From: Candidatus Poribacteria bacterium
GTDB taxonomy: Bacteria > Poribacteria > WGA-4E > GCA-2687025
Assembly (NCBI GenBank): GCA_018644665.1
Contig: JABGQA010000108.1
Location: forward strand, 3,527-67,526
Length of the DNA: 64,000 nt
Direction of reading: 5' to 3'
Shown here: piece by piece, positions 15,641-43,193 of the stretch
Layout of the letters: each line of letters opens with the position of its first letter
Position numbering within the stretch: the first letter of the stretch is position 1
Notes under the pieces: model-generated
Told to the model about the DNA's origin: nothing
Databases searched by the model: none
What the model saw: the letters and a program-made list of their open reading frames with translations, nothing else
Made by a program: the position numbers and the translations under genes

Positions 15641-15664
15641 AGTTACCGGGCCGCGCGGACCACG

Positions 15665-17980: not shown

Positions 17981-17988
17981 CGGGCTCC

Positions 17989-18639
17989 TTACCGGTCCCT
18001 GAGCGCCTCTACCCGGACAATCGCGATTCCCCGATCGCGGAAGCCGACGCGCTCCGCGACTCGCTTGGACACGTCGATCACGCGTCCCTTGATGAACCCG
18101 CCACGGTCGTTGATGCGCGCCACGGCCGACCGGCCGGTGGCCTCGGCAGTTATGCGCACCCAAGTGCCGAACGGGAGGAACCTATGCGCGGCGGTCATCG
18201 CGTTCTGGTCGTACGTCTCACCGCTCGCCGTTGGGCGGCCGTGGAACGCCTTACCGTACCACGACGCGGGGCCGACCTGTGCGACGATTTCCTCCACGTA
18301 GCCGCTGGATCGGTCGTCTTGGCCGATGCCGAGTCGCGCGGCGGCTCCTGCGCTGATGCGAGACGTGTCCGCGTCAGCGCCCTGCGCGATGACACGGGCG
18401 ATGAGGGCGCGTCCCGTGTCGCGGTTCGTCACGCGCGCGAAGCCGCCCGGCGCGATGGTCGGGTGCGTGACCGTGAGCGTCTTGGCGCCACCCGATGCCT
18501 CGCCGTCCCAGAGCAATTCCGCGTCTCCGGCGGCGCCCAACTCGAAGCCGCCCCAGTAGATGCTCGTGTGTGGGAAGTACGCGCATCCCGCCACGAACGC
18601 GACTATGGACAGGATGAACGCTACAACGCATGTTCGCAA
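17989..18639 (-). CDS. rlpA: RlpA-like (septal ring lytic transglycosylase / DPBB domain) lipoprotein
   Basis: 216 aa with a lipobox-like VAGC at the N-terminus. ASWYGKAFHGRPTASGETYDQNAMTAAHRFLPFGTWVRITAEATGRSAVARINDRG is the RlpA double-psi beta-barrel signature. Confidence 0.8.
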   Translation of the reverse strand: MRTCVVAFILSIVAFVAGCAYFPHTSIYWGGFELGAAGDAELLWDGEASGGAKTLTVTHPTIAPGGFARVTNRDTGRALIARVIAQGADADTSRISAGAAARLGIGQDDRSSGYVEEIVAQVGPASWYGKAFHGRPTASGETYDQNAMTAAHRFLPFGTWVRITAEATGRSAVARINDRGGFIKGRVIDVSKRVAERVGFRDRGIAIVRVEALRDR

Positions 18640-18743
18640 GTCAGTTCCTCAGCGGGCGCGGCGACGTGGACCGCGTCCCAGCCTTCTCCTGCAAGGGGCG
18701 GCGGCCAGCAGTCGCGGCTTCCTGCAGTCGTCGGCCATCCGAC

Positions 18744-20246
18744 TCAACCGCAGCGGCCCAACGCCGCCCCGATGTCGGCGCCGTCAACCACCGATGCGAC
18801 GGCACGAGCGGTGTCTGCGCGCGCGCGGTCGATGGCGGCTCGGCGCTCCTCGACCCCGGCGGCGTGCGTGTCCGTCGCCGCCTTGAGGCGTTCGGCCATC
18901 GCGGTCACGGACTCGGGCCCCGTGCCGCCGGCGCTGCGGTTGCGCCGCACTGCCGCCGCGGGATCGAGAACCGCCTTCAGCGTATCTACGCCCACAGCGC
19001 GCCCGTGCGTTGCGAGGATCTCGTCGCACATAGCCACGTCGCGGAACGTCGCCTTGCGGTCAACGAGTTCCATCACCAGCTTCCCGACGATGTCGTGCGC
19101 CTCGCGGAACGGCACGCCCGCTTCGCGGGTGAGATAGTTCGCTAACTCCGTCGCCGTTGAGAAGTTCCCATACGTCAGATCGAGCATGCGGTCGGTGTCG
19201 GGCGTCATCGTGCGGACGACCTCGGTCATGATCCCGACGGTGCCCTCGGAGGTGTCCAGGGCTTCCCACAGGGGCGGCTTATCCTCCTGCAGGTCGCTGT
19301 GATACCCGAGCGGGAGACCCTTCAGCGTGGACAGCACGGCCTGGAGCCCCGCGGAGACCTTCGCGGCGCGCGCGCGCGCCAATTCGGCGACGTCTGGATT
19401 TTTCTTTTGCGGCATGATGGAACTGCCCATCGCGTACGAGTCGTCGAGGGTCCACATGCGGAACTCGTAAGACGTGCCGTACACGATATCCGCGGCAAGC
19501 CGCGAGAGATTCGTCATCAGCATTGACAGCGCGAAGAGGGTTTCGATGATGAAGTCGCGGTTGGAGATGACGGCGAGCGCGTGTTCGTCCACGCGGTCGA
19601 AGCCGAGGAGACGCGCGGTCAGGTCGCGGTCGATCTCGAAGTCGGTGCCAGCGAGTGCACAGGCGCCCAGCGGATTGCGATTGACGGTTGCGTAGGACGC
19701 CTGCATCCGACGCAAGTCCTCGACGAATAGCGCGGCGTACGCCGTCGCCCAGAAGCCGAGGCTGATGGGCTGCGCGTGTTGCGTGTGCGTGTAGCCCGGC
19801 ATGACGGCGTCGCCGTGTTCGGCGGATCGATCGAGGAACGCGTCCGCGAGGGCGCAGACGCCCGCTTCGAGGTCCGTGAGTTCCTCGCGGATGGTCATGC
19901 GCGCGTCGGTCACCACCTGGTCGTTCCGCGAGCGCGCCGTGTGCATGCGTCCGCCGGATTGAGCCCCGGCGATGCCGCTCACATACGCCTCGACGTTCAT
20001 GTGGACATCCTCGAGACGGGCGTCCATCACGAACTCCCCGGCTTCCGCCTCGCGACGGGCCTCCTGCAGCGCCGTCAGGATCTCGCGCACGTCATGGGCC
20101 GGGACTATGCCCTGCTTCCCGAGCATCAGCGTGTGCGCTTCGTTGCCCCATATGTCGGCGTGGAGCATGCGCATGTCGTCTGCGGTGGAGTCGGTGTACG
20201 CGAGTACGGACTCTCGCGCGCCGGCCTGTCCGCGTGCGCCCATCAT
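18744..20246 (-). CDS. argH: Argininosuccinate lyase
   Basis: 500 aa with the fumarate-lyase signature GSSIMPQKKNPD and an ArgH-like N-terminal D.......AH..ML...GI pattern. Confidence 0.85.
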   Translation of the reverse strand: MMGARGQAGARESVLAYTDSTADDMRMLHADIWGNEAHTLMLGKQGIVPAHDVREILTALQEARREAEAGEFVMDARLEDVHMNVEAYVSGIAGAQSGGRMHTARSRNDQVVTDARMTIREELTDLEAGVCALADAFLDRSAEHGDAVMPGYTHTQHAQPISLGFWATAYAALFVEDLRRMQASYATVNRNPLGACALAGTDFEIDRDLTARLLGFDRVDEHALAVISNRDFIIETLFALSMLMTNLSRLAADIVYGTSYEFRMWTLDDSYAMGSSIMPQKKNPDVAELARARAAKVSAGLQAVLSTLKGLPLGYHSDLQEDKPPLWEALDTSEGTVGIMTEVVRTMTPDTDRMLDLTYGNFSTATELANYLTREAGVPFREAHDIVGKLVMELVDRKATFRDVAMCDEILATHGRAVGVDTLKAVLDPAAAVRRNRSAGGTGPESVTAMAERLKAATDTHAAGVEERRAAIDRARADTARAVASVVDGADIGAALGRCG

Positions 20247-26510: not shown

Positions 26511-26829
26511 CGGCGTGTCGTCTCGGCCGGGACGCGTGTTCTGGCCCCGCGGAGTAGGCGCCGAGCCGCTGCTGCCAGAACGCGCGACGGCGCTAGTCGC
26601 ACCCGTTCGCGGCCGCTCCGGTAGTCGTCGCCGGAGGCTGCGAGAGCGTACGGCGCCGTCCTCGGGGCATCGCGCGAGAGAGATACGGTCCCGGCAGAGC
26701 GCGGCGTGCGGGCGCCGCTTGCGGGCGAGGCGGTCGCTTGTGTATCGTCACGAGCGTAGGTCGGTGGCGCGCACGGACGGGCAAGGAGCCCGGCTCGTGT
26801 GCCCGCCACAGGAGGTAGACGCGGCGTCC

Positions 26830-28941
26830 ATGATCCGAAGACAGCCCACGGTTTGTGTTACGTACGTCGTCCTGATGGTGTTCGCCCTTGCCCTGACCCC
26901 ACTCCTCGCCCCGGGACAGCCGGGCGAGCCGTTGTTGGGCGGGGTGGAGCGGCTGAGGGCTTCCGACGGTCGGGACATCTCCGGCCATGGTCAGTCGGGC
27001 ATCGTCGGCGCCTGGCTGGATCGCGAGGTTGCCATTGTCGTCACCGGGGACGATGGTCAGCCGGTCGTGGGGGCCCCGGTGCACTTCGTGCTCGTGCGAC
27101 AGCCAGCCAAGGCCAAAGAGGCGCGCGTGGAGCCGTCGATGGCTCGCACCGACACGGACGGGGTAGCGAAGTCCCGGCTGCGACTTGGCACCAAACCGGG
27201 CAGCTATGTCTTGACGGCCACGACGCCGGACATGGCAGGACGTCCTGCATCCATCGAGGTCGACGCGAAGGGCGCCACCTGGCTGGTATTTCTCGTGTTC
27301 GCCCTGCTCGGCGGCCTGGCCATCTTCCTGTACGGCATGGGCCTCATGAGCGAGGGCATGAAGAAGGCCGCTGGCGACCAGATGCGCTCCATACTGGGCG
27401 TGCTGACCAACGTGCGCATCGTTGGCGTCTTGGTCGGGGCCTTCGTGACCGTAGTGATCCAGTCCAGCAGCGCAACGACCGTGATGCTCGTGGGGTTCGT
27501 CGACGCGCAACTCATGTCTCTGGCACAGTCACTCGGCGTCATCCTCGGCGCGGACATCGGCACGACGATCACCGCGCAGCTCATCGCGTTCAAGGTGACG
27601 CACTACGCGCTTCTGGTGGTTGCCGCGGGCTTCCTCGTCCTCTTCTTGGCGAAGAGTGATACGTACCGAGCGGTGGGCGAGGCGCTGCTCGGGTTTGGCC
27701 TTGTGTTCTTCGGCATCCACGTGATGTCCGAGGCCATGTACCCGTTCCGCACGTACCGACCCTTCATCGAATTCCTACTGACGCTCAGGAATCCGATCCT
27801 GGGGATCCTCGTCGGCGCCGCGTTCACGGCGCTCATCCAGTCGAGCAGCGCTTTCACCGGTATCCTCATCGCGCTGTCGCAGCAGGGGCTGCTGAGCCTG
27901 GAGGCGGGGATTCCGCTGCTGTTCGGCGCCAACATCGGCACGTGTGTCACCGCTGCTCTCGCTTCGCTGGGCTCGTCCCGGGAAGCGAAACGCGTCGCCG
28001 TCGCCCACACCCTCTTCAAGGTCGGTGGGGTGTTGCTGTTCGTCTGGTTCATAGGGCCCCTAGCGACGGTAGTGCGTTGGCTATCGCCGGATGTCGCCGA
28101 GGGGGTGTCGGGGATCGCCGCGAATGCGGCGACGGTACCACGACAGATCGCGAACACGCATACCCTGTTCAACGTCGGCATGGCGATCATCTTCTTCCCG
28201 TTCGTGCCCGCGATGGCGCGCCTGGTGGAGTGGGTGATGCCCGACCGCGTAGAGCAGGAGGCGGAGTCGGCCGACCCAAACGTGGTCGTCCCTCAGTACC
28301 TGGATCGCGGGTTGCTCACAACGCCGGTTCTCGCCATCGAACAGGCGCGGCGCGAGATCTTGCGCATGGCGGAATTCGCGCGCGGGATGCTCATGGACGT
28401 AATGCCTGCGTTCCTCACTAACGACATGGAGACGGCCGGGGAGATTCTGCGGCGCGACAACCGAATCGACTCTCTCCAGCGCGCGACCACGCTTTACCTC
28501 ACGCAAGTCGCCCAGCAGGATCTCACGCTGCCACAGTCGCAACGGGTCATACAGTTGCTGCACGTGGCCACCGAACTGGAGCACATCGGCGATGTGATCG
28601 AGAAGGATCTGGTGTCACTTGTAATGAAGAAGGCCGAAGGGCAGATCGACTTCTCGCCCGAGGGGCGCGAGGAATTGGTCGAGTACCACGAGCGGATCGT
28701 CGACAGCTACGACAACGCCATAGAGGCGTTCCAATCGGACGACGCGTTGAAAGCGCAGTTGGTCGCGACTATGAAGCCGCAACTCGTGGCGTTGGAGCGC
28801 ATCTATCGCCAGACGCACTACGATCGCCTGACCGAGGAGCTGTCGCAGTCGGTGGAAAGCAGCCAGATTCACCTCGACCTGCTCGACGGCCTTCGGCGCG
28901 TGAACTCCTACTCAGAGTCCATCGCCACGGCCCTGCTGTGA
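26830..28941 (+). CDS. Na/Pi cotransporter family protein with C-terminal PhoU-like domains and an N-terminal Ig-like ectodomain
   Basis: The ORF-track start at 26515 gives an Arg-rich non-coding-like extension. ATG at 26830 gives a signal/TM peptide. The transporter core shows repeated QSSSATT / QSSSAFT motifs, and the C-terminus has PhoU-like helices. Confidence 0.8.
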   Translation: MIRRQPTVCVTYVVLMVFALALTPLLAPGQPGEPLLGGVERLRASDGRDISGHGQSGIVGAWLDREVAIVVTGDDGQPVVGAPVHFVLVRQPAKAKEARVEPSMARTDTDGVAKSRLRLGTKPGSYVLTATTPDMAGRPASIEVDAKGATWLVFLVFALLGGLAIFLYGMGLMSEGMKKAAGDQMRSILGVLTNVRIVGVLVGAFVTVVIQSSSATTVMLVGFVDAQLMSLAQSLGVILGADIGTTITAQLIAFKVTHYALLVVAAGFLVLFLAKSDTYRAVGEALLGFGLVFFGIHVMSEAMYPFRTYRPFIEFLLTLRNPILGILVGAAFTALIQSSSAFTGILIALSQQGLLSLEAGIPLLFGANIGTCVTAALASLGSSREAKRVAVAHTLFKVGGVLLFVWFIGPLATVVRWLSPDVAEGVSGIAANAATVPRQIANTHTLFNVGMAIIFFPFVPAMARLVEWVMPDRVEQEAESADPNVVVPQYLDRGLLTTPVLAIEQARREILRMAEFARGMLMDVMPAFLTNDMETAGEILRRDNRIDSLQRATTLYLTQVAQQDLTLPQSQRVIQLLHVATELEHIGDVIEKDLVSLVMKKAEGQIDFSPEGREELVEYHERIVDSYDNAIEAFQSDDALKAQLVATMKPQLVALERIYRQTHYDRLTEELSQSVESSQIHLDLLDGLRRVNSYSESIATALL

Positions 28942-28975
28942 TCGTGGTGTCCGCTGAACGCCGCCGTCCGGTCGC

Positions 28976-30536: not shown

Positions 30537-32924
30537 ATGCCCAGTTCGTACGGCCGCGTGTCGGTTGTTCGACGCGGACCGCAGGTTACGGTACAGAACG
30601 CACAACTTCAGATCACGTACGACCTGTCCGAGGGACTTTGGAGCTACGCTAACGCAGAAGGCCAAGCGCTAATCCGAGGCGTGTGCGCCCGATGGAGCCT
30701 CGAGGGCGGTGGCGCCGGCGCGACATCTGATCCGTGCGACCGCTCCTTCCACGCGGCGCCGGCGCATAGCGATGTTCACGGGGCCGGCGTCGAGTTAGTG
30801 TTCACCCATACGGCCGAAGGTCAGGACGTCGTCGCGGAGTTGTCGCTGAGCGTATACGAGGCCGTGCCCTTCGCGGTCCTCCAGGCGCGCGTGCGCAACG
30901 TCGGCCGCCGCGCCTTCCGCGTGGCTCGCTTGTACCTGATCGACGTCCCCAACTCGGAAACGCAGGCCACTTCAGGCATCCAGCTCGGCAGCGCGCCTAC
31001 CGACTGCCTCGCGCATTTCACCGGCTCGCTCTATATGGCGCACGGAGCGCGGCCGATCCAGCGCGACGCGGTCTTCCCCGACGAACTCACCGACGAGCCG
31101 ATATCCGACGGACTCATCTACACGACCTCGAACCAGCACGCCGTGAAGTTCGGGTTCCTCGACGGCGGCCGGTGGTGGAGCGGGGCGCGGATAGGGTTCG
31201 TACCGCCCGTGAAGTCCGAAGACGCCGAAGACGCGGAACTGGCCATCAACGTCTGGTCGGTGTACCAGTCGTGCGACGGGGAGCAGTGCCGCGGCGACGA
31301 CATCGTCGCATCCGAGCGGCTGTACGTGAACGTCACGACGCCCGTGTCGGAGGCGCATCAGCAGTTCGTGGACACTGCCTGGGGCGCACAGGCCCCACCG
31401 GAGCCGATCTCTCCGGCCGTCTCGTACCACCTCTCCGTGGAGGAGGGCGACGCTCCGTCGGGCGAACGGATCAAGCGCTTCCTCGACCGACTCAACGCGC
31501 GCCGGCAGGACATGCCCGTCGGCCCGGGCGGGTTGGCGGAGGTCCGGCTAGCGGACGGCTGGCGCGGGGCCTCGCCCGACGAGTCGCAGCGACACTTCCC
31601 GTCCGGTGTCAGATCGTCAATCGACGCGATCCATGAGCGCGGGATGGCGGTCAGCGCCCGCGTGGACACGTTCATGGCCGGCGTCGTGCCCGACGAATAC
31701 GGCGACGCGCTCGTGCGCCAGAAGAACAGACGGCCGGCGACTTTCAGCGCCGACGGGTTCATCGACGCGGCGGTGATGGATCCCACGCACCCGAAGACGC
31801 GCGACTGGCTCCGCGAGCGACTTCGCGAGGCGTTCGTCGATTGGAACCTCGACGTGGCGTATGCGTCGCTGATGCCGTTCCGAACGCTCGTGGCCGACGA
31901 TGTGGCCCGCTATCGGTGGCACATGCCGAACCTGACGCGCATGCAGGTGCTCACAAGCGCCTATGAACTCCTGATGGAGGTCAAGGCGGAGGTGGCGCCC
32001 AACGCCACGTTGGGCCTAACGAACACGCCTCCGGGAGCGGCCTTCGCGGGTTCGTACCGCTCGAACGTGGGGCTGGACCACTTCTACAACGCGCAGTCGC
32101 CGATTTGGGACGGCAAGTGGGGCCTGAAGGAGATGCTGGCTGCCTTCGCGGGTAGTTGGCACACGCATAGCGCACAGCAGCAGATGGAGTTCGGGCCACT
32201 CACGTTTGTTCAGGGCCGAACGCGCAACGAGGCGGAACTCCTACTGACGTTGGGTCTGCTCTCCGGCGCGCAGCTCTGCTTCGCGGACGATGTGTCGGGC
32301 CTGGAACGCGACGAACTCGGCCTGCTGCGTCGCTGCCTGCCGCTCATGGGCAGGACGGCGAAGCCGGTCCACACTGTGTCGAGCGTCGTGCAGGCGTGGA
32401 ACCTGCCGTTCGAGAGCGCGTTCGGCGAGTGGAACGTCATCGCCGTCGCGAACCTGACCGACATGTACGAGGACGTCCAGTTCTCGATGAACGATCTGGG
32501 GATGAGCCCCTCGCGCACGTACGTGGCGCACGAGTTCTGGGATCGCGACTTCTACGGTATCCACCAGCGCTCGTTCTCGGTCGCGGGCATTCCGCCGCGA
32601 TCCGCGAAGATGTACGTGCTCCGCGAGGAGCAGAAGTTCCCGATCTTCCTCGCCACGGACTTGCACCCGTCTCAGGGCTCCGAGGAGCTTGTGACCGTCG
32701 GGTGGGACTCCAAGAGCGAGAGCTTGATGGGTGTCTGCCGCGGCCCGGCCCAAGGCCGAGGTACGATCTTCTTGTACGTGCCGCCGGGCTTCCTGCCCGT
32801 AGGGGCGAGTTGCGTTGGCGCGCAGTATTCCTACCGCTGGACCGCGCCGGTTCTGGAGTTCCAGGTGACCCTCGGGGACGCGCCCGCTCCGTTCAGCCTT
32901 CGGTTCGCCCGTACCGAGGGCTAG
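30537..32924 (+). CDS. Putative glycoside hydrolase, clan GH-D-like (GH36/GH27 alpha-galactosidase-like TIM barrel)
   Basis: 795 aa. EVRLADGWRGASPDESQRHFPSGVRSSIDAIHERGMAVSARVDTF resembles the DDGW...FP.G...L.D.IH..GM.FGLW block of clan GH-D enzymes. The family assignment is tentative. Confidence 0.4.
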   Translation: MPSSYGRVSVVRRGPQVTVQNAQLQITYDLSEGLWSYANAEGQALIRGVCARWSLEGGGAGATSDPCDRSFHAAPAHSDVHGAGVELVFTHTAEGQDVVAELSLSVYEAVPFAVLQARVRNVGRRAFRVARLYLIDVPNSETQATSGIQLGSAPTDCLAHFTGSLYMAHGARPIQRDAVFPDELTDEPISDGLIYTTSNQHAVKFGFLDGGRWWSGARIGFVPPVKSEDAEDAELAINVWSVYQSCDGEQCRGDDIVASERLYVNVTTPVSEAHQQFVDTAWGAQAPPEPISPAVSYHLSVEEGDAPSGERIKRFLDRLNARRQDMPVGPGGLAEVRLADGWRGASPDESQRHFPSGVRSSIDAIHERGMAVSARVDTFMAGVVPDEYGDALVRQKNRRPATFSADGFIDAAVMDPTHPKTRDWLRERLREAFVDWNLDVAYASLMPFRTLVADDVARYRWHMPNLTRMQVLTSAYELLMEVKAEVAPNATLGLTNTPPGAAFAGSYRSNVGLDHFYNAQSPIWDGKWGLKEMLAAFAGSWHTHSAQQQMEFGPLTFVQGRTRNEAELLLTLGLLSGAQLCFADDVSGLERDELGLLRRCLPLMGRTAKPVHTVSSVVQAWNLPFESAFGEWNVIAVANLTDMYEDVQFSMNDLGMSPSRTYVAHEFWDRDFYGIHQRSFSVAGIPPRSAKMYVLREEQKFPIFLATDLHPSQGSEELVTVGWDSKSESLMGVCRGPAQGRGTIFLYVPPGFLPVGASCVGAQYSYRWTAPVLEFQVTLGDAPAPFSLRFARTEG

Positions 32925-33334
32925 TCAGCACGTATCGCGGCCTCCGACTCCCGGCTTCGGCCCAGGCGGCCTGCCGCCTTCTTAGTCGATGCTGTGGGTG
33001 GCCTCACTCCCGCCCGTCTTCTACGGCCGGTGTCTGCGGCGGGATGTCGCGCGACGCTGAGGTCGTCCATCATCACCGCGCTGTGCACTCGGTTGGTCGC
33101 GGCGGTGCCGCTGACCTGCGTCCTCCCAGCACACCCCGCCGACCCCTGACGAGCTTTCCTGGGGTTCTGTCCCTCTGGCCCTAGAGGTGGTTCCGCAGCA
33201 AACGCCCATTGCCGCTGCTCCGTAGCCCTGTGGCGTCCCCGCGTGACCCACCTCAACACACCAGTTCGCCAGGATCCGCCGCGCGACGCCTCCCAACCCC
33301 TACTCGGCGGCGCGTGGAGTGTGCCGTGCCACGG

Positions 33335-33362
33335 TTGCTAGTACCCTGCTTAGCTCTATACT
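33335..33362 (+). promoter_or_regulatory. Candidate promoter in an AT-rich patch upstream of the NACHT-like gene
   Basis: TTGCTA (33335-33340), a 16-nt spacer, then TATACT (33357-33362). This is one of the most AT-rich spots I noticed, 45 nt upstream of the ATG at 33407. Confidence 0.4.
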
Positions 33363-33406
33363 TATCCCGTCAGACGATGCGACCACGTCCACCGGCGAGG
33401 GCGGTG

Positions 33407-36400
33407 ATGGCACAACAAGCGTGGCAGAATCTCCGCGCGTGGAAGGGATCCCAGACGGATGCCTTCGAAGAGCTTTGCTGCCAGCTCGCGGCACACGAGG
33501 ACAAACGCGAGCCGGTCCTAGCAGGCGCGAAGTTCGTACGCAAAGGAACGCCGGACGCGGGTGTCGAATGCTACTGGACATCCCCAGAGCTGGGTGAGTG
33601 GGCTTGGCAGGCCAAGTTCTTCCTGAACTCCCCGACGGCAGGTCAGTGGGGACAGATCGACAAGTCGGTCAAGACAGCCCTCTCCAAGCACGGGCAAGCT
33701 CTTAAGCGGTACTACGTCTGTCTGCCGACCGACCTATCGGACCCAAGACGGGACGACCAGACGTCCGCCAAGGATCAGTGGGACACCCATGTTGAGAAGT
33801 GGGACGATTGGGCAGCGGAAGACGGCGTCTGCGTGGAGTTCGTGTACTGGGGCAGCCACGAGATCTCGGAGAGGCTGTCGCGGGAGGAACACGCAGGGCG
33901 TCGCTACTTCTGGTTCAACGACTCTGAGCTCAGTCAGGGATGGTTTGAGCAACGGCTTGCGGAAGCGGAGTCCAACGCAGGCGCCCGATACACGCCCGAA
34001 CTCAACGTCGAGTTGCCGATCGCGGGCGTGTTCGACGGCCTGGGCCGAACGGCCGCGTTCTTCAGGCGAATCCAGGCAACACTGCGCGACCTCAACAAGC
34101 ATCTGACGTTCGCGGTCTCCAGAAAGGCCCAAGAGGCCGCTGGCGAGGCATGCGAACAGCTCAGCTCCGCGCGATCCGAGCTAGACGCAGCCATCCGTGG
34201 GCTCGATCAGCAGGGTACGGACGAACTGCCGTTGGAGCCGTGCGTGGAATTGGTGGATCGCGTCGACGAGGCGCGATCCGAGTGCGGACAAGAACTCCTG
34301 ACCGTTGAAGTGGAGATACGCGGAGACGAAGGCGATGGCACTGCAGAGTCGCGCGCAAGAATCCCCGAACGGCTATTCGCAACGGAGCAGCACGGGCTTG
34401 GGGAGGCGCGGCGCACGCTACGCGAGATGCGCGAGTGTCTGTCTGCACGCGGCGCGCAAGCTGCGAACACCAAAGCCTTGCTTGTTGTCGGCGATGCGGG
34501 CGTTGGCAAGACCCACCTGCTGCGTGATGTTGCGCAGCGGCGTCTGAGCGACGCGCAGCCTACAGTGCTGCTGCGCGGCAGTCACTTCCTGCCAAGCCAT
34601 CCTTGGCCGCAGATCGTCGCGGGGCTCGGATTGAGCTGTAGCACGGACGAACTGCTGGGGGCTCTCGACGCCTGTGCGGAAGCTACTGACTGTCGGGCGC
34701 TGATTCTTATAGATGCGCTGAACGAAGGTAGCGGACGAGACATGTGGCAGGACCACATAGCCGGTATGCTGACGACCCTTCGCAGGTATCCTCGAGTGGC
34801 ACTCGCCGTCAGCGTCCGGACCAGCTACGAGGACTTGGTGATCCCCCAGCAGCTCGCCGAAAGTGCTGACCTAACGCGTGCCGAACACGATGGGTTCGCC
34901 GGGCATGAGTACGAGGCGACGCAGACCTTCTTCCGCCACTTCAACGTCCCAGCGCCTTCCTTTCCGCACCTGGCGCCGGAGTTCAGCAATCCGCTGTTTC
35001 TTGTGCTCCTGTGCAGGGCTCTGGGCGGCCTCTCGCCGGAGGGCATGCCGTCAGGCGAGCAAGGTATGAGTGCTGTCTTTGGCCGCTTCCTGGACCGTGT
35101 GAACGAACGGCTTTCGCGTAGCCAGGCCCTAGACTTCGACGGGGAAGAGCAATACGTGCACCGTGCGGTTCTGCGCTTCTCGATGAGGCTCGCGGATACA
35201 AACGTGCGCGCGGTGCCCCGTCACGAAGCACGTGAACTCGTCAACCAGGAGTTGCAGCGGACGGAGCACAGCAGGACGCTCTTCAAGGGGATGCTCGACG
35301 AGGGCGTGCTGATCGAGGATCGGCGGCGTTTGACTGACGGCGAGCCCGTCGACGTTGTGCTGCTGTCCTACGAGCGATTCTCGGACTACATGATCGCTCG
35401 GCACTTGATCGACCAGCACATGGACCCGGCGAGCCTCGACACGGTGTTCCGGCCAGGTGGCAGTCTTCACGACGGCTATGTGCGGGACGGAAAGTGCTGG
35501 GACCACGCCGGCGTGATGGAAGCGCTTTCGGTACTGATCCCCGAGACGTTCGGTAGGGAACTGCTCGACATCGTACCGGAACGGGCGCGGGCGGCAGTCT
35601 TGGCTCCATTCATATGGAGCATCGTCTGGCGGTCGCCGAGTGCCTTTACGGAGAGCACACGGCGAGTGATGAACACGGAGATAGCTGGCGAGGGGGCCGA
35701 CCCCGACTGGTTCATCTTCGACCAGTTCGTCGAGTCGCTCCTGACTGTCGCGGCGACGCCGGGGCACCCTTACAACGCGGACAAACTGCACCTGTGGCTG
35801 GGCGGTTACTCGCTGGCGTCGCGCGATGCGTGGTGGTCCACCTATCTGCATCGCCAGTACGGTGAGAAGGGAGCCGTGGAGCGGCTATTGCGGTGGGCGT
35901 GGTCGACCGAGGGACACCCGTCGATCAGTGATAAGGCCGCGAGGTTGGCCTGCACGGCGCTGGCGTGGATGCTGACAACGTCGAACCGCTCCGTGAGGGA
36001 TAGAGCAACGAAGGGGCTCGTCTGTCTCTTGCAGGGCCGCGTCCCCGTCCTTCAAGACCTGCTCGGACGCTTCGCCGATGTGGACGACCCGTACGTCCTG
36101 GAGCGTCTGCACGCGGTCGCCTACGGCTGCGCGCTGCGGACGTCGGACGACGGCGCCCTTGCGGAACTGGCCCTCGACATCTACGCGCGCATCTTCGCCG
36201 ATGGCCGGCCGCCGGCACATATCCTCCTGCGTGACTACGCGCGGGGCGTGATCGAAGCAGCGCTCTACCGTGGACTGGATCTGGGTATCGATGTCGAGAA
36301 GGTCCGACCGCCCTACGCGAGCGACTGGCCGTCCGACATCCCAACGGCGGACGAGGTAGATGCATGGCGGAACTACGCTGAGGATGCGTCCGACGTGGAG

Positions 36401-38047
36401 CGTACGCGCAGCCGTGTGGCTTCAGGCGCGATGAGTTCCGACTTCGCTAGGTACATAGTCCGAAGCAGCTTGAAATGGTCTCGGCGTGCACTTGGCGAGC
36501 CGAAGCCCCCAACCAGCCGAGAACTGGTTGACCAATGGTGTCGCTCACTCACAAACCGGCAGGCGGCGGCATACGGCGAATACACCGCCGCGGTCGAGGG
36601 GTGGCGCGAAGGCGTGCCCCTCAGGTGGATACAGATCCCGCCCCGTCGTAGGTCTGGCACACCCACGGGTGGGGCCGGTGCTGAGACAGGTCACGGCACT
36701 GAACCGGAAGCGGCCGCGAACGAACTCGCCGATGCCAAGAAGCAGATACTCTACGACGCAACAACCCTCGCGGCCGACGCGGTTCGGAAGACGCTGCGCG
36801 GCCGCAAGCGGGAGGATTTCGATGCCATGGTTGTGCCCTACTTGGTCGGCCCCCGTCGACCCCCAGAGCAGGACCGGCTTGACGAGTCCTTCGTGCTGAG
36901 AGCAGTCGTGAAACGGGTGCTTGATCTTGGGTGGACAGACGAGCGCTTTGCCGAATTCGACCGGGAGGTGAGTCATGGACGGTGGGGGTCGCATGGCGCC
37001 CAGGCAGAGCGAATCGGCAAGAAGTACCTATGGATCGCCTATCACGAGATGTTGGCGCGCGTGTCGGACCGGTTCGCCTACAGCGAACCCTTTGGGGACG
37101 ATCCAGACGCCCGGTACGAGGGTCCATGGCAGGTGGGTCGCCGCGACGTCGATCCATCCGTGTTGGCACGGGCCCCGCAGGAAGACCATACCGGGGAGAG
37201 TGGGCGGTGGTGGTGGGTACCGCACCAATACAGTGAATGGCAGGACGGTGAGGCGCCATCCGAGTGGGTCCAGGAACGTAGCGACCTTCCCCATCTTGCA
37301 GGCATGCTCGACATTCCCGATCCCGACGACGGATCAGGATGGGTGCTCATGCGGGGCGTGTTCACGTGGGAGCGGCCCACGTCGGCTGCGGACGACAGAT
37401 ACGAAGTACCCCGGCGTCACGTCGTGCTTCGTGTACAGGCATACGTCGTCCACTCAGCAGAGATGGAAGCGGCCCGCAAGTGGTGCGCTGCGCAAGATCC
37501 AACGGCGTGGACTGACCTTGGTCCTCGCGACATCCGGGAAGCGCTATATCGCGAATTCCCGTGGGCAGAGGCCGCACGCCACGGGTGCCCGGCCGGCAGT
37601 GAATGGCAAGATAGCCTGGACTGGGAAACACAGCATCGTGCGCTTCCCGCGACTGATCTGTATGTATTTAGCGGCGATCCGGACTGTTCCGGGTCGGCAC
37701 ACCATATCGCCGTGCCGTCCGCATGGTTGTGTGGGCAGCTGGGTTTGACCCACACCAACACAGACGGCGAATTCAGCGACCCATGCGGCGCAACTATGGC
37801 TGTAGATCCGTCAGTGAGCGGCGGGCCGGAGGCCGTCCTCATGCGGGCCGACCGACTCAGGGAATTCGTGGCCCACGGAGACCACGACATCCTCTGGGAG
37901 GCGCGATGGGTAAAGGAGATCCTTGGCGGGTGGGACGAACGTGTGAGCTACGGCCGGATGGACGTGCGGGGATTCTACACCATGGACCAATCAGGCGGGT
38001 TCAGCGGCAGCGCGACATCCGAGCACACACCGCCATCCACTACTTAG
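33407..38047 (+). CDS. NLR/Avs-like STAND NTPase: N-terminal Mrr-like PD-(D/E)xK nuclease domain + NACHT-type P-loop module + large C-terminal region of unknown fold
   Basis: 1546 aa from ATG 33407 (GAGG 7 nt upstream). The ORF-track TTG at 33209 adds a Pro/Arg-rich, non-coding-like 66 aa. The nuclease-like motif is GTPDAGVECYW...WAWQAKFF (D at 33554-33556, E at 33566-33568, QxK at 33608-33616). Walker A is GDAGVGKT (34490-34513). Walker B is LILID followed by ALNE (34700-34726). A NACHT-like NPLFLVLLC motif lies downstream, and a HEAT-like SVRDRATKGLVCLL is also present. Confidence 0.7.
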   Translation: MAQQAWQNLRAWKGSQTDAFEELCCQLAAHEDKREPVLAGAKFVRKGTPDAGVECYWTSPELGEWAWQAKFFLNSPTAGQWGQIDKSVKTALSKHGQALKRYYVCLPTDLSDPRRDDQTSAKDQWDTHVEKWDDWAAEDGVCVEFVYWGSHEISERLSREEHAGRRYFWFNDSELSQGWFEQRLAEAESNAGARYTPELNVELPIAGVFDGLGRTAAFFRRIQATLRDLNKHLTFAVSRKAQEAAGEACEQLSSARSELDAAIRGLDQQGTDELPLEPCVELVDRVDEARSECGQELLTVEVEIRGDEGDGTAESRARIPERLFATEQHGLGEARRTLREMRECLSARGAQAANTKALLVVGDAGVGKTHLLRDVAQRRLSDAQPTVLLRGSHFLPSHPWPQIVAGLGLSCSTDELLGALDACAEATDCRALILIDALNEGSGRDMWQDHIAGMLTTLRRYPRVALAVSVRTSYEDLVIPQQLAESADLTRAEHDGFAGHEYEATQTFFRHFNVPAPSFPHLAPEFSNPLFLVLLCRALGGLSPEGMPSGEQGMSAVFGRFLDRVNERLSRSQALDFDGEEQYVHRAVLRFSMRLADTNVRAVPRHEARELVNQELQRTEHSRTLFKGMLDEGVLIEDRRRLTDGEPVDVVLLSYERFSDYMIARHLIDQHMDPASLDTVFRPGGSLHDGYVRDGKCWDHAGVMEALSVLIPETFGRELLDIVPERARAAVLAPFIWSIVWRSPSAFTESTRRVMNTEIAGEGADPDWFIFDQFVESLLTVAATPGHPYNADKLHLWLGGYSLASRDAWWSTYLHRQYGEKGAVERLLRWAWSTEGHPSISDKAARLACTALAWMLTTSNRSVRDRATKGLVCLLQGRVPVLQDLLGRFADVDDPYVLERLHAVAYGCALRTSDDGALAELALDIYARIFADGRPPAHILLRDYARGVIEAALYRGLDLGIDVEKVRPPYASDWPSDIPTADEVDAWRNYAEDASDVERTRSRVASGAMSSDFARYIVRSSLKWSRRALGEPKPPTSRELVDQWCRSLTNRQAAAYGEYTAAVEGWREGVPLRWIQIPPRRRSGTPTGGAGAETGHGTEPEAAANELADAKKQILYDATTLAADAVRKTLRGRKREDFDAMVVPYLVGPRRPPEQDRLDESFVLRAVVKRVLDLGWTDERFAEFDREVSHGRWGSHGAQAERIGKKYLWIAYHEMLARVSDRFAYSEPFGDDPDARYEGPWQVGRRDVDPSVLARAPQEDHTGESGRWWWVPHQYSEWQDGEAPSEWVQERSDLPHLAGMLDIPDPDDGSGWVLMRGVFTWERPTSAADDRYEVPRRHVVLRVQAYVVHSAEMEAARKWCAAQDPTAWTDLGPRDIREALYREFPWAEAARHGCPAGSEWQDSLDWETQHRALPATDLYVFSGDPDCSGSAHHIAVPSAWLCGQLGLTHTNTDGEFSDPCGATMAVDPSVSGGPEAVLMRADRLREFVAHGDHDILWEARWVKEILGGWDERVSYGRMDVRGFYTMDQSGGFSGSATSEHTPPSTT

Positions 38048-38078
38048 GCGATCTCGCGACCGGACCGGCGGACCGGCT

Positions 38079-38590
38079 CTTACCTTCGACGCCGGCCTGA
38101 ACGCCACGCTGCACGACGACGTCGCGTTCGCCGAGGATCTCATCGTCGGCGCGACCACCGCGGTCAGCCGTCCTCTCAGGATGCACAGCGATTCCCCCGA
38201 CCTCGACGCGGGCGCCGCCTTCGAGAACACGGGTACTGCGCCGGTCCACCTGCATTTCGGCACGAACCGGACCTCGGTGAACCAGCCGTTGGCGCGCCTC
38301 TACGCGCAGTGGGACGGGAACTTCGTCGCGCAGATAGCCTTCGTCAGCGGTTCCGACATTGCGGAGGTCCAGGACAGAGACCGTGGTGAGGTGGCTTTCT
38401 ACACGTCTCCCGCGGGCTCGAACACATACCGATGCGGGCGCTTTGGCGACGAGGGCGGCTCTATTCCAGGGCTGTCAGTGGCGACCCCGGCGTGGACGCG
38501 GAGCGTGACAATCGGGTACGAGCGCCTCGTCCGTCGGGTAGAGGAACTCACCGGCAAGACGTTCATCACGAAGTCCGACGCGGCACAGTC
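38079..38590 (+). pseudogene. Possible 5'-truncated remnant of a tail-fibre-like / beta-rich gene
   Basis: The frame of ORF 38181-38864 is open back to 37947 with no ATG, GTG or TTG before 38181. The coding-like sequence LTFDAGLNATLHDDVAFAEDLIVGATTAVS...APVHLHFGTNRTS...LYAQWDGNFVAQIAFVSGSD...GEVAFYTSPAGS begins right after the stop of the NACHT-like gene. It turns Arg-rich and non-coding-like after about 38590, then overlaps the convergent amidohydrolase gene. Confidence 0.3.
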
Positions 38591-38689
38591 GCGGCCGCGC
38601 CGCAGACGCCAGCCGTCCCGTCGTCTCGGAGCGAAGGGACTGCTGATCCCTGCTCTGCGCCGCCATGTCGCGACCGACGTGGCGAGACG

Positions 38690-39994
38690 CTACTCCGCGG
38701 CGGCGTGCGCAGCGTTCAGCGCCGCGCGCGTACCCTCCAGGTCGAAGCACTCGTACTGGTTGTCCCGCATGATGCGCGAGGCGATGTACTTCGCCTCCTT
38801 CCCGCCCATGTACCCCTCGGCGACCTCGGCCTCGAGCGCGCGTGTGATCTCGTTGCGCGCCTGAACAGCGTACGCCACGGAGCTCGTCGGCCATCCCGTG
38901 TCGCCACCGAACGCGAACACCTTGTTGATCGGCACGGCGTGGATGCAGCGGCGCAGGAAGTCACGTGAGCTGAACGGGTCGATGCTCCACGCCCAGCACA
39001 GGTCCGCCCAGACATTGCGGTAGTGCTTCGTCATGGCGACGAGTTCATCGCTGTACGGGTAGGAGATATGCATCAGGACGAACTTCGCGTCGAGGTACTT
39101 GGCCAGCAGCGGGGCCAGGTTGCCCGACGGTATGCGTCGCACCGGCATGCGGTCGTTGCCCGCGTAGTACCCCGTGTGGAGCTTGAAGGGGAGGTCGTGG
39201 TCGATGGACAGCTCGACGCCGCGGGCCCAGCACCAGTCGCCCAACCGCAGCCGCGTCGGGACGTCGATCTCCTCGTCGGGCTTGGTGAGGATATCCTGCA
39301 ACGCGGACTCGGCGTCAGCGTCGCTGCGCTCGACCCAATCGAGGGTGCGACCGTAGGCATGCTGCGCCTTCACCGCGGCGGCCGTGGGGCCGTACTTGGC
39401 GAAGATGGCTTCCATGCCGCGCTTCAGGGACGCCAGATCGGTAACGCCGACCTCCGTCTCTTTGTGGATCGCCTCCGGGTCGACCTGACCGCTGCAGAAG
39501 CCCTGCCACGACAGGTCGTACAGGAAGAACTCGAGGCCGGACGGGTCCGGCACGCAGGGCCAGCAGAAGTCGTCCGTCTGGACATGGTCGAGGTTCGCGA
39601 CATCCCGCAGCAGGCGTAGGCGTTCGCCCGGCTGTCGTAGCGCCGCGGTCTTGTGGTTCTGCGCGGCGAGCGCCGAGCCGGTCATTTCCTCGACGCCGTA
39701 TATGTCGCGCGCGATGATGCTCACCGCTTCGCCGTAGCCGGTGAACCGGATCTTCTCCCAGATGTCGCGCACGCTCTCGAACCTGCCCTCGATGTCGGAG
39801 TTCGAGCCGTCCATGAGTGTCTGGCGTTGCTCGCCCGTGATCCCGGCCGTGTGTAGGTCGGCGGGGACGTAGTTCGAGAAGATGTCCTGTAGGATGTCGT
39901 CGGTATTCGCGAGCCAGGCAGGCTCCTTCTGCAGATGCTCGTGCGTGTCGACGAGTGGTGTCTCCTGAACGTGACGGGCGATGTCGCTGCTCAT
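38690..39994 (-). CDS. Amidohydrolase family protein (TIM-barrel metal hydrolase)
   Basis: 434 aa with an N-terminal PLVDTHEHL motif and later HTGYY, LMHISYP and AFGGD blocks. Confidence 0.6.
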   Translation of the reverse strand: MSSDIARHVQETPLVDTHEHLQKEPAWLANTDDILQDIFSNYVPADLHTAGITGEQRQTLMDGSNSDIEGRFESVRDIWEKIRFTGYGEAVSIIARDIYGVEEMTGSALAAQNHKTAALRQPGERLRLLRDVANLDHVQTDDFCWPCVPDPSGLEFFLYDLSWQGFCSGQVDPEAIHKETEVGVTDLASLKRGMEAIFAKYGPTAAAVKAQHAYGRTLDWVERSDADAESALQDILTKPDEEIDVPTRLRLGDWCWARGVELSIDHDLPFKLHTGYYAGNDRMPVRRIPSGNLAPLLAKYLDAKFVLMHISYPYSDELVAMTKHYRNVWADLCWAWSIDPFSSRDFLRRCIHAVPINKVFAFGGDTGWPTSSVAYAVQARNEITRALEAEVAEGYMGGKEAKYIASRIMRDNQYECFDLEGTRAALNAAHAAAE

Positions 39995-41349: not shown

Positions 41350-41609
41350 CTGCAAGCGGTCGAGTCCTCTACCCGCCTTGAAGCGCGCGCTCCTTCCCGC
41401 TTAGGGTGGTGACATGCTGGCAAGGGTTCTCGCCGGTGACGGCGCAAGCCGGGCGATCGACACGCCTCACAGGCCGCCCTCAGCGCCGTGCGCCTCCGTG
41501 TCAGGCTCCCGCTCTCGCTACGGCCGCGACGGTCGATGAACGCCACGTGCGCCTAGGGCCGATTTGGCCGGGCGTGACGTGTCGGAGATCGCGCGGACAA
41601 GGAGGCTCC

Positions 41610-43193
41610 ATGCGCAAGCTCCGAGTCGGTATCATCGACATCATCACAAACGGCCCTACAGGCGCGCTGTGGAGCCGTGTGATCAACCCCAGCTACGCCA
41701 GCATCATGCCGCAGGTGATCGCCGTGTGGTGCGAGGAGCAGGGGCATGAGGTGATCTTGGTCCCGTACACCGGCTCCGAGGACCTCACCCAGGAACCTGG
41801 CGTTGACGTCGATCTGCTGTTCATCGCGGCGTTCACCGAGGCCGGGCAGTTCGCCTACGCGGTGAGCAACTACTACCGACAGCAGGGCGCCGTCACGGTT
41901 CTGGGAGGACCGCACGCGCGCTGCTACCCGGAGGACGCCTGCAACTACTTCGACTACGTCCTCGGGTTCACCGACAAGGAGACGATCCTCAGCGTGCTGA
42001 CCGAGTGCGCGCAGCACCGGCCGGAAGGCGTGCATCTGAGCGCCCCGAAACACCCTGTCGCGCTGCCCGGCATCCGCGAGCGGTGGAAGCACGTCGAGAA
42101 GACGCTTCAGAAGGCGCCGTGGGTGAAGTTCGTCGGCATGATTGGAAGCCTGGGGTGCCCGTACACCTGTAGCTTCTGCATCGACTCGGTGATCCCGTAC
42201 CAGCCGCTCGAGTTCGACGTCATCACCGAGGATCTGCGGTTCCTACTGACGAAGTACAGGCGGCCGCGTGTGGGCTGGCACGATCCGAACTTCGGCGTCC
42301 GGTTCGACGACTACATGGACGCGATTGAAGCCGCCGTTCCGCCCAACCGCATCGACTTCGTCGCGGAAAGCTCGCTATCGCTGCTCTCGGAGCCCCACCT
42401 GAAACGCATGCAGGTCAACGGCTTCAAGGCGCTGCTGCCGGGAGTCGAGTCGTGGTACGGTCTCGGCAACAAGTCGAAGACAGGCTCCGCGACAGGGATC
42501 GACAAGGTGCGCGAGGTGGCCGCCCACGTGAACATGATGGGCTCCTACATCCCGTACATTCAGACAAACATGGTCTTCGGAATCGACGCGGACGAGGGGC
42601 CCGAGCCGTTCGAACTGACCAAGCAGTTCCTCGCGATGGCCCCACGGGCGTTCCCTGGGCTCTCGCTTCTGACCGCATACGGGCGGGCGGCGCCGCTGAA
42701 CCTGGAGTACCAGCGGGCCAAACGCGTCCTGCCCTTCCCGTTCCACTTCCTGAACAACCACGAGGCCATGAACGTCCGACCGAAGCAGTACAGCTGGGTC
42801 GAGTTCTATGACCACGTGATCGACCTCACGAAGGCCGCCTACTCATGGCCGGCAATCGCGAGGCGCTTCGCCGCCACGAAGGGCACGATCCCCAAGGGCA
42901 TCAACTTCATCCGAGCGATCTCGTACGAAGGGTTCGGGCGACTCAAGTACTACACCGAGGTCCGCCGGCTCCTCGTCGAGGACCGGCAGTTCCGCGCGTA
43001 CTACGAAGGCGAGACCACCGACCTCCCCCCGTTCTTCTACGATCGCCTTCGCCGTGGTCTCGGGGAGTTCTGGCAATGGCTGCCCGACGGAGCCATCCAC
43101 CATGATACGAACGCCTACCTCGCGGCTGAGGAGCGGGCCGCGCTCGCGCGGCAAGAACGGCCGAGCACGTACGACGCCGCTGCCGGGGGCTAG
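41610..43193 (+). CDS. Radical SAM protein with an N-terminal B12-binding-like (Rossmann-like) domain
   Basis: Start at MRKLRVGIID (GGAGG at 41601-41605). The CxxxCxxC cluster is GCPYTCSFC. An N-terminal flavodoxin-like segment precedes it. The specific subfamily was not identified. Confidence 0.7.
   Translation: MRKLRVGIIDIITNGPTGALWSRVINPSYASIMPQVIAVWCEEQGHEVILVPYTGSEDLTQEPGVDVDLLFIAAFTEAGQFAYAVSNYYRQQGAVTVLGGPHARCYPEDACNYFDYVLGFTDKETILSVLTECAQHRPEGVHLSAPKHPVALPGIRERWKHVEKTLQKAPWVKFVGMIGSLGCPYTCSFCIDSVIPYQPLEFDVITEDLRFLLTKYRRPRVGWHDPNFGVRFDDYMDAIEAAVPPNRIDFVAESSLSLLSEPHLKRMQVNGFKALLPGVESWYGLGNKSKTGSATGIDKVREVAAHVNMMGSYIPYIQTNMVFGIDADEGPEPFELTKQFLAMAPRAFPGLSLLTAYGRAAPLNLEYQRAKRVLPFPFHFLNNHEAMNVRPKQYSWVEFYDHVIDLTKAAYSWPAIARRFAATKGTIPKGINFIRAISYEGFGRLKYYTEVRRLLVEDRQFRAYYEGETTDLPPFFYDRLRRGLGEFWQWLPDGAIHHDTNAYLAAEERAALARQERPSTYDAAAGG

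Follow-up and report, generated by a model that had tools for sequence, protein, structure and literature searches.

The gene at 33407-38047 of the window (the whole stretch of 64,000 nucleotides that was analysed, from an uncultured marine Poribacteria MAG) encodes, with a probability of about 0.9, an intact but divergent antiviral STAND NTPase of the Avs2 family (AVAST type 2), in the commonest effector form of that family, the one with an Mrr-like nuclease. We are confident also of the order of its domains, in which an Mrr-like PD-(D/E)xK nuclease is followed by a helical extension, a STAND ATPase, a TPR-like domain and a C-terminal sensor. In window coordinates, the gene and its parts are:

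33407..38047, + strand: Avs2 (AVAST type 2) gene, 1546 aa plus stop codon; open reading frame confirmed, with PADLOC, NCBIfam and PDB matches
33407..33922, + strand: Mrr-like PD-(D/E)xK nuclease effector domain, aa 1-172; AF2 model, Foldseek and profile match
33467..33616, + strand: predicted catalytic core, E21 (helix 1), P49-D50, E54, E64 and Q68-A-K70 (strand 3); conservation
33923..34426, + strand: helical extension between effector and NTPase, aa 173-340; the EcAvs2 9o4e alignment begins at aa 174
34427..35506, + strand: STAND NTPase module (NBD, helical domain, winged helix), aa 341-700; AF2 and Foldseek
34490..34513, + strand: Walker A GDAGVGKT, aa 362-369, with K368; G365, G367 and K368 in 118/118 aligned sequences
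34697..34726, + strand: Walker B ALILIDALNE, aa 431-440; D436 and N439 in 118/118, E440 in 117/118
35507..36496, + strand: TPR-like alpha-helical sensor region, aa 701-1030; continuous EcAvs2 9o4e alignment to aa 1031
36497..36811, + strand: variable, partly low-complexity linker, aa 1031-1135; unaligned to 9o4e
36812..38044, + strand: C-terminal beta-rich sensor domain, aa 1136-1546; aligned to 9o4e residues 1073-1472

The initial annotation had read the gene as a single-gene anti-phage STAND protein of the Avs type carrying a PD-(D/E)xK/Mrr-like nuclease, a reading that is supported by family models, a solved homologue and fold comparison. The PADLOC search that it had proposed as a check matched the protein from end to end to Avs2 model PDLC02164, aligning aa 5-1543 with positions 5-1499 of the 1504 in the model at 1489.5 bits; five more PADLOC Avs2 models scored 649-890 bits, and the next defence family 19 bits. 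The NCBIfam Avs2 equivalog NF041813, whose curated cut-off is 1000 bits, gave 1207.4 bits (aa 190-1529 on model positions 3-1313 of 1317), and the EcAvs2 structure (PDB 9o4e) was matched over aa 174-1031 and 1136-1529 with an E-value of 3.7e-184. The Avs4 model (NCBIfam NF041815) yielded 7.7 bits against a cut-off of 1500, only the nuclease domain being Avs4-like. There are 1490 homologues at E <= 1e-10; the matches listed are about 1500 aa long, and several of them bear the name Avs2 at NCBI. The nearest homologue among 5.8 billion clustered proteins shares 43-44% identity, and the Poribacteria protein appears from sequence comparison to be a long branch inside Avs2. The family had at first been given as unknown and possibly a new clade; PADLOC and NCBIfam place the protein in Avs2, albeit on this long branch, and since it belongs there in the most common effector form, it is not a new family. 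Nor does it add a new mechanism or a new kind of system, Avs2 being an established family of antiviral sensors of bacteria that cleave DNA on detection of a phage protein.

The reading frame runs uninterrupted from the ATG at 33407 to a stop codon ending at 38047, and the 1546-aa open reading frame originally reported thus passes the frame check. A longer frame starting at TTG 33209 is not supported: homologues begin at the equivalent of M1 (consensus MxIxWQNLR), and the coding GC pattern is absent upstream (GC1/2/3 of 0.71/0.68/0.59 in the extension versus 0.68/0.49/0.73 in the Avs2 frame). Four contigs, each from a different sample accession, carry this region with 100% identical DNA, and the protein is recorded on a fifth contig too. 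A scan for terminators found none, and upstream of the gene there is a weak promoter candidate:

33335..33362, + strand: candidate sigma-70-like promoter TTGCTA-16-TATACT, 45 nt upstream of the ATG

It is the sole match of its type in 32800-38800, which equals the chance expectation of 0.8 +/- 0.9.

The N-terminal domain has the fold of a PD-(D/E)xK nuclease. An AF2 model of aa 1-200 (pLDDT 88.6) contains helix 16-29, strands 42-45, 55-59 and 63-69, helix 78-98 and strand 99-105, the alpha-beta-beta-beta-alpha-beta order expected for a PD-(D/E)xK core. The AlphaFold and Foldseek comparison suggested in the initial annotation retrieved the EcAvs4 nuclease (8dgf) as the closest structure (E 4.2e-4, probability 1.0, TMq 0.55); all matches at a probability of at least 0.97 are PD-(D/E)xK proteins (the Avs4 nuclease, NucS, SfsA and SPO1766, 3dnx), and EcoO109I and Cap4 follow at 0.5-0.9. 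The motif pair noticed at the outset, GTPDAGVECYW (aa 47-57) and WQAKFF (aa 67-72), lies where described, with 14 residues from E54 to Q68, and is conserved: across 117 homologues each of E21, P49-D50, E54, E64, Q68 and K70 is either invariant or kept in at least 96% of the sequences. The domain was found in 1607 clusters at 50% identity, and is N-terminal in all 150 of the best matches listed. The expected Pfam Mrr_cat domain did not appear, as aa 1-190 matched neither Mrr_cat (PF04471) nor Mrr_cat_2 (PF13156), nor anything else in Pfam; in 21 homologous N-terminal domains there was again no Mrr_cat, and Mrr_cat_2 occurred in 1/21 only (E 0.0094). A search of PHROGs with the domain returned nothing, a single-sequence search of PDB with the N-terminus gave only a chance-level match, and a profile of the domain had one weak match in PDB, to EcAvs4 over aa 5-94 (E 0.031). 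With no Pfam match to support it, the label Mrr-like derives from the fold, from the match to Avs4 and from the published assignment of the KpAvs2 N-terminus to the Mrr family by HHpred (PMC11564622). Mrr-like dsDNA nucleases are the effector of most Avs2 homologues (PMC13601566).

About 170 residues separate the nuclease from the P-loop, and by alignment these are the Avs2-specific helical extension, which in EcAvs2 is part of the terminase-binding interface (PMC13601566); identity to homologues is low here, at 30%. In the module that follows, the P-loop stretch LLVVGDAGVGKTHLL (aa 358-372), the hhhhD Walker B with its following acidic residue, ALILIDALNEG (aa 431-441), and NPLFLVLLC (aa 528-536) were all located at the places first described and are conserved. 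In the alignment with 117 homologues G365, G367, K368, D436, N439, P529 and L532, together with D50, E54, Q68 and K70 of the nuclease, are invariant or nearly so; the five motifs are not chance patterns. An AF2 model of aa 330-720 (pLDDT 85.7) matched NLRP/NLRC4, Avs4, ORC/Cdc6 and plant TIR-NLR structures, among others, all at a Foldseek probability of 1.0; the best TMq values (0.43-0.48) belong to NLRC4 and Avs4. The fold resembles the NACHT NLRs NLRC4 and NLRP (TMq up to 0.48), but AAA+ proteins of the ORC/Cdc6 type equal these NLRs by E-value. Thus, of the central NACHT/STAND domain initially proposed, the STAND fold is upheld by the AF2 model and Foldseek, but the NACHT assignment is not, Pfam NACHT (PF05729) scoring 20.9 bits, below its cut-off of 26.7. 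Pfam AAA_16 likewise fell below its cut-off (25.7 versus 32.6 bits). The module should be called a STAND NTPase, not specifically a NACHT one. The more likely reading of NPLFL is the GxP/GLPL type of motif that lies in helical domain 1; the winged-helix reading is the less likely one.

A close parallel in domain order is KpAvs2 of Klebsiella pneumoniae (Bechon et al. 2024, PMC11564622), in which an Mrr-family endonuclease, a helical bundle and a STAND NTPase likewise precede a long sensor of the Avs2 type. The catalytic lysine K71 of KpAvs2 corresponds to K70 of the Poribacteria protein, and its Walker A lysine K337 to K368; defence is lost in both the K71A (nuclease) and the K337A (NTPase) mutant, and infection leads to degradation of DNA (PMC11564622). 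EcAvs2 (PDB 9o4e; Evans et al. 2026, PMC13601566) shares the helical extension, STAND ATPase, TPR domain and C-terminal sensor by homology. Its effector, however, is an uncharacterised non-nuclease N-terminus, to which the first 173 residues of the Poribacteria protein, with their PD-(D/E)xK domain, do not align. EcAvs4 (PDB 8dgf), also an Mrr-like nuclease-STAND-TPR protein, is the best structural match of the nuclease, with the common pattern FE...GxE...GWQxKF and a similar STAND fold, but its sensor differs and its target is the phage portal. VcAvs2-trypsin-MBL (bioRxiv 10.64898/2026.08.25.746987) has a similar Avs2 chassis of NTPase, TPR and C-terminal parts sensing the terminase; its effector is a trypsin-like protease with a separate MBL gene, whereas the Poribacteria gene has a fused nuclease and no second gene.

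By homology with EcAvs2, KpAvs2, SeAvs3 and EcAvs4, we infer the trigger, the tetramerisation, the DNA degradation and the abortive-infection outcome. At rest the protein would be an inactive monomer. On infection, the helical extension, the TPR domain and the C-terminal sensor would together make up a pocket that binds a conserved phage protein; the likeliest ligand is the large terminase, through its ATPase domain. The ATP-bound STAND domains might then assemble as a tetramer; EcAvs2 forms a terminase-bound tetramer (PMC13601566), and from homology to it a flat C4 tetramer binding the terminase ATPase domain is expected here. The tetramer would gather the N-terminal nucleases into active units, with sequence-nonspecific degradation of dsDNA and abortion of the infection as the presumed result.

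The phage large terminase is thus probably the trigger, by analogy with these systems. The trigger could nevertheless differ, since of nine EcAvs2 residues reported to touch the terminase or the bridging ATP, four are altered: H stands in place of T1128, S in place of R1132 and of E1362, and V in place of E1444. D981 and R1130 are retained, and at three positions the exchange is conservative (E1364 and E1462 to D, W1266 to Y), so that only about half of the contacts of EcAvs2 are kept; close to an indel, the alignment behind these assignments is uncertain. D981, which contacts bridging ATP in EcAvs2 (PMC13601566), aligns to a conserved D in the stretch SDFARY. The linker shows 24% identity to homologues, and the C-terminal sensor, at 33% identity to relatives versus 52% among those relatives, is the most diverged region. 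This divergence and the altered contacts favour an Avs2-type protein whose sensor recognises a phage protein other than the terminase, or additional small phage proteins as KpAvs2 does with Ksap1/Ksap2, and alternative activators of Avs2 are documented (PMC11564622, PMC13601566). Yet the C-terminal part, taken alone, matches the EcAvs2 sensor in 9o4e at E 1.1e-42 and is clearly its homologue, EcAvs2 is described as recognising the terminase redundantly and as tolerating single mutations (PMC13601566), and a clade-specific type of sensor has been reported for Avs2 (PMC13581612); we consider such a change of trigger unlikely, at perhaps one chance in several. Somewhat less likely again is that the protein represents a deep, so far unsampled sub-lineage of Avs2 whose sensor has been retuned, either towards another phage protein or towards the very divergent terminases that phages of marine Poribacteria carry; if true, this would widen the known recognition range of the Avs2 chassis. 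In any case, so diverged a sensor offers a possible probe of how far target recognition can drift in Avs2.

The genomic setting of the gene differs between close relatives:

32925..38691, no strand: lineage-specific segment carrying Avs2, flanked by genes syntenic in related MAG L005

In a blastn comparison with this MAG, homology stops at window position 32924 and restarts at 38692; in between, L005 has 6.5 kb of unrelated genes and no Avs2, and these genes are absent elsewhere in the window save for weak PD40 repeat similarity. The initial annotation had taken a syntenic core gene present in all relatives as an argument against its reading, and L005, with the same flanks, has no such gene. 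The GC3 of Avs2 is 0.734, against 0.846 +/- 0.027 in 36 window genes (z = -4.2), and the neighbours are housekeeping genes (IleRS, LeuA, FtsY, IF-2, NusA and the like). The gene contexts of relatives are varied, some adjoining restriction-modification, toxin-antitoxin or conjugation genes. The GC3 outlier, the locus replacement in L005 and these varied contexts fit a mobile defence gene, and there are thus signs of acquisition by horizontal transfer. Among the neighbours there is no integrase or transposase, the segment has no convincing flanking direct repeats, no tRNA was found in the 64-kb window, and Rfam had no match in 32500-39000. A 19-nt inverted pair near the segment borders (33023-33041 and 38598-38616), with 17/19 complementarity, was set aside as near chance level, about one such pair being expected in 7.5 kb of 66% GC DNA. 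PADLOC found no credible match among the 36 other window genes tested; a weak LeoA match (E 1.2e-6) is probably spurious. Avs2 is thus documented in the candidate phylum Poribacteria as a lone acquired gene, outside any defence island, at a site that differs between close relatives.

KpAvs2, in contrast, shares its operon with Avap2 and a radical-SAM protein, frequently close to other defence systems, while the Poribacteria gene has neither partner nor island. KpAvs2 requires Avap2 against SECphi18 (PMC11564622), and the Poribacteria protein might likewise need an accessory factor, as Avap2 for KpAvs2 or the MBL for Avs2-trypsin; one candidate would be an unannotated same-strand open frame just downstream (37947/38181-38861) with coding-like GC3 (0.80-0.84). 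We regard this as improbable: the frame has no Pfam, PHROG or PADLOC match and no counterpart beside relatives, for which reasons we rejected it as a partner (37947-38861), the neighbours are unrelated in four relatives, no conserved partner gene is common to the relatives, and with the nuclease already fused to the sensor a separate effector is unneeded. A radical-SAM/B12 gene at 41406-43193 was also rejected as an Avap1-like partner, since L005, which has no Avs2, carries this gene and the amidohydrolase genes in synteny.

Atypical codon composition, isolation among housekeeping genes and the long branch might instead suggest a gene that was acquired horizontally and is now decaying and no longer functional. 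This is very unlikely in view of the uninterrupted frame and its full-length alignment to the family model, the catalytic and ATP-binding residues, which are all intact, and the identical DNA in four contigs from four sample accessions, with the protein on a fifth. Least credible, at odds we consider minute, is a STAND protein with no role in defence (such as a regulator of transcription or signalling) that merely resembles Avs: STAND clades with and without defence roles are intermixed (PMC13581612) and the neighbours are housekeeping genes, but the equivalog-level match covers the family-specific sensor, a conserved nuclease effector is present, and the gene is missing from a related genome with the same flanking genes. 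Databases carry the protein under generic names, "ATP-binding protein" in NCBI records and "hypothetical protein" in a JGI record, which the precise Avs2 annotation replaces.

Opening with ATG at 33407 and closed by a stop codon whose last base is 38047, an uninterrupted frame encodes a 1546-aa protein that three independent resources assign, by sequence, to AVAST type 2 (Avs2). The PADLOC Avs2 model PDLC02164 matched it nearly end to end (1489.5 bits, aa 5-1543), and five further PADLOC Avs2 models scored 649-890 bits, the next family reaching 19 bits. The NCBIfam Avs2 equivalog NF041813 gave 1207.4 bits versus a curated cut-off of 1000, and the NCBIfam Avs4 model 7.7 bits versus a cut-off of 1500. 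The solved structure of EcAvs2 (PDB 9o4e) was matched with an E-value of 3.7e-184 over aa 174-1031 and 1136-1529. The reading of this gene as an Avs-type anti-phage STAND protein, proposed in the initial annotation, thus holds; its suggestion of an unknown family, perhaps a new clade, gives way to the already known Avs2 family in its commonest architecture. Against Pfam, the whole protein yielded AAA_16 (25.7 bits) and NACHT (20.9 bits), both sub-threshold, and its ends gave no match; Avs2 membership is invisible to Pfam alone. We place the start at 33407 because homologues have their first residue at the position matching M1, and because the extension from TTG 33209, where the mechanical ORF begins, does not show the GC pattern of coding sequence. 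All five motifs listed initially were found in the frame:

Motifs of the Avs2 protein (gene at 33407-38047, plus strand)
aa 47-57, GTPDAGVECYW motif
aa 67-72, WQAKFF motif
aa 358-372, P-loop
aa 431-441, Walker B
aa 528-536, NPLFLVLLC motif

In an alignment with 117 full-length homologues, E21, P49-D50, E54, E64, Q68 and K70 are nearly or fully invariant, as are G365/G367/K368, D436/N439/E440 and P529/L532. The motif pattern is confirmed as real, and chance is excluded.

The N-terminal 173 residues did not align to EcAvs2 9o4e, whose own N-terminal effector is unusual and uncharacterised (PMC13601566). For aa 1-200, AlphaFold2 with 64 homologues as input gave a confident model (pLDDT 88.6, pTM 0.81) that places in order a helix (16-29), three strands (42-45, 55-59, 63-69), a helix (78-98) and a strand (99-105); the predicted fold is that of the PD-(D/E)xK nuclease core (alpha-beta-beta-beta-alpha-beta). 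The top Foldseek match in the PDB was to EcAvs4 (8dgf), in its N-terminal nuclease, with E 4.2e-4, prob 1.0 and TMq 0.55; NucS/EndoMS, SfsA, EcoO109I and Cap4 came next. A sequence profile of the domain had a single PDB match, EcAvs4 residues 5-94 (E 0.031), and in the profile alignment the two nucleases have in common FE (E21), GxE (E54) and GWQxKF (Q68, K70). The fold and the EcAvs4 match bear out the proposed PD-(D/E)xK/Mrr-like N-terminus. The Mrr_cat match expected there is absent, both from this domain and from 21 homologous domains, one of which matched Mrr_cat_2 (E 0.0094). The assignment fits published work: Mrr-like dsDNA nucleases are the effector of most Avs2 homologues (PMC13601566), and the effector of Klebsiella pneumoniae KpAvs2 was assigned to Mrr with HHpred, its K71A mutant losing defence (PMC11564622). 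K70 is likely the equivalent of K71. The domain is common: at E <= 1e-3, 1607 clusters (50% identity) contain it, and it is N-terminal in all 150 best matches listed, in proteins mostly of about 1500 aa.

The model of aa 330-720 (pLDDT 85.7) resembles NLR-type and AAA+ initiator-type ATPases in Foldseek, with matches to NLRP, NLRC4, Avs4, ORC/Cdc6 and a plant TIR-NLR (all prob 1.0) and best TM-scores of 0.43-0.48, to NLRC4 and Avs4. This predicted fold supports a STAND NTPase, but not the narrower NACHT label. Between nuclease and P-loop, a stretch of roughly 170 residues represents the helical extension of Avs2, which contributes to terminase binding in EcAvs2 and binds Avap2 in KpAvs2; the remainder could be aligned with the TPR domain and the C-terminal sensor of EcAvs2. 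We compared nine EcAvs2 residues reported as touching terminase or bridging ATP. Since five are kept or conservatively replaced (D981, R1130, E1364 to D, W1266 to Y, E1462 to D) and four altered (T1128 to H, R1132 to S, E1362 to S, E1444 to V), terminase sensing is the most likely, though presumed, trigger.

Family membership, folds, motifs and genomic context come from the present analysis. Carrying over trigger, oligomerisation and DNase activity from EcAvs2, KpAvs2, SeAvs3 and EcAvs4, we suggest that the sensor pocket would bind a phage protein, most probably the ATPase domain of the large terminase. The ATP-bound STAND domains would then form a tetramer and bring together the Mrr-like nucleases, which, once assembled, would degrade dsDNA and cause abortive infection.

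Among 5.8 billion clustered proteins, no homologue comes nearer than 43-44% identity. For the 117 best homologues, mean mutual identity is 54% and median nearest-neighbour identity 71%.

Identity by domain (query versus others; among others)
Nuclease: 57%; 64%
NTPase: 48%; 61%
TPR domain: 45%; 58%
C-terminal sensor: 33%; 52%

By these comparisons the protein forms a long branch inside Avs2, with the sensor drifting most, and no new family. A possibly shifted specificity of this diverged sensor is the one point of some interest.

Five contigs, from as many sample accessions, have the identical protein on record; two NCBI Poribacteria MAGs (GCA_018693355.1, GCA_018665855.1) are among them, and the region is 100% identical in DNA across the four contigs compared. 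The gene is surrounded by genes of housekeeping or metabolic character (IleRS, LeuA, a phosphotriesterase, a Na/Pi transporter, FtsY and a 795-aa protein, then two amidohydrolases and a B12/radical-SAM protein); IF-2, NusA, OMP decarboxylase and glycoside hydrolases lie elsewhere in the window. Its GC3 of 0.734 is low beside that of 36 window genes (0.846 +/- 0.027, z = -4.2). A related Poribacteria MAG contig (CAYYPK010000040.1, about 81% nucleotide identity) has the flanking genes in common up to 32924 and again from 38692, with 6.5 kb of unrelated genes and no Avs2 between them. Segment 32925-38691 is thus specific to this lineage, and horizontal acquisition is the most probable origin of the gene; in both lineages the site is variable. 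Around the gene, we found nothing to mark its arrival: no integrase, no tRNA, no Rfam element and no flanking repeat. A 19-nt inverted repeat (33023-33041/38598-38616, 17/19 complementary) about 100 nt inside each segment border was rejected as a border mark, being about chance level by estimate; 14 pairs of this kind were reported in all.

The gene contexts of four relatives are unrelated (housekeeping genes; type I restriction-modification and helicase genes; BrnT/BrnA toxin-antitoxin; a TraG-like and an Mrr_cat gene). Because none has a conserved partner beside it, these loci support a single-gene system, as initially proposed. The PADLOC scan of the window gave no further credible defence match; a weak LeoA match (E 1.2e-6) in one protein, among 29 other genes scanned, probably comes from a housekeeping GTPase, IF-2 for instance, that fits the dynamin-like GTPase model, and not from a defence gene.

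In the related contig, the counterpart position (12395-18903) has genes for a Cpn60/GroEL paralogue (GC3 0.87), an ECF-sigma-factor fusion of 674 aa (GC3 0.72) and a beta-propeller protein of PD40 type (GC3 0.68). The 795-aa protein encoded next to Avs2 on its upstream side (30537-32924, plus strand) is conserved, with 86% identity there; Pfam gave it nothing significant beyond a weak Melibiase_C similarity, and PADLOC gave no match. Directly downstream, an open frame (37947-38861, plus strand, first ATG 38181) has coding-like GC3 (0.80-0.84) and protein-like sequence, and overlaps the 3' end of an opposite-strand amidohydrolase gene. It had no Pfam, PHROG or PADLOC match and no counterpart at the relatives' loci, and gene callers differ on it (a 227-aa gene in ENA records, a 71-aa minus-strand gene in the JGI record); it may be a gene remnant brought along with the insertion. 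The 808-aa Na/Pi-cotransporter/PhoU/Big_1 gene (26511-28973) is missing from another related MAG contig (NYZG01000366.1), where about 450 bp join its flanking genes, which makes it the second gene of this region to be present in one relative and absent from another.
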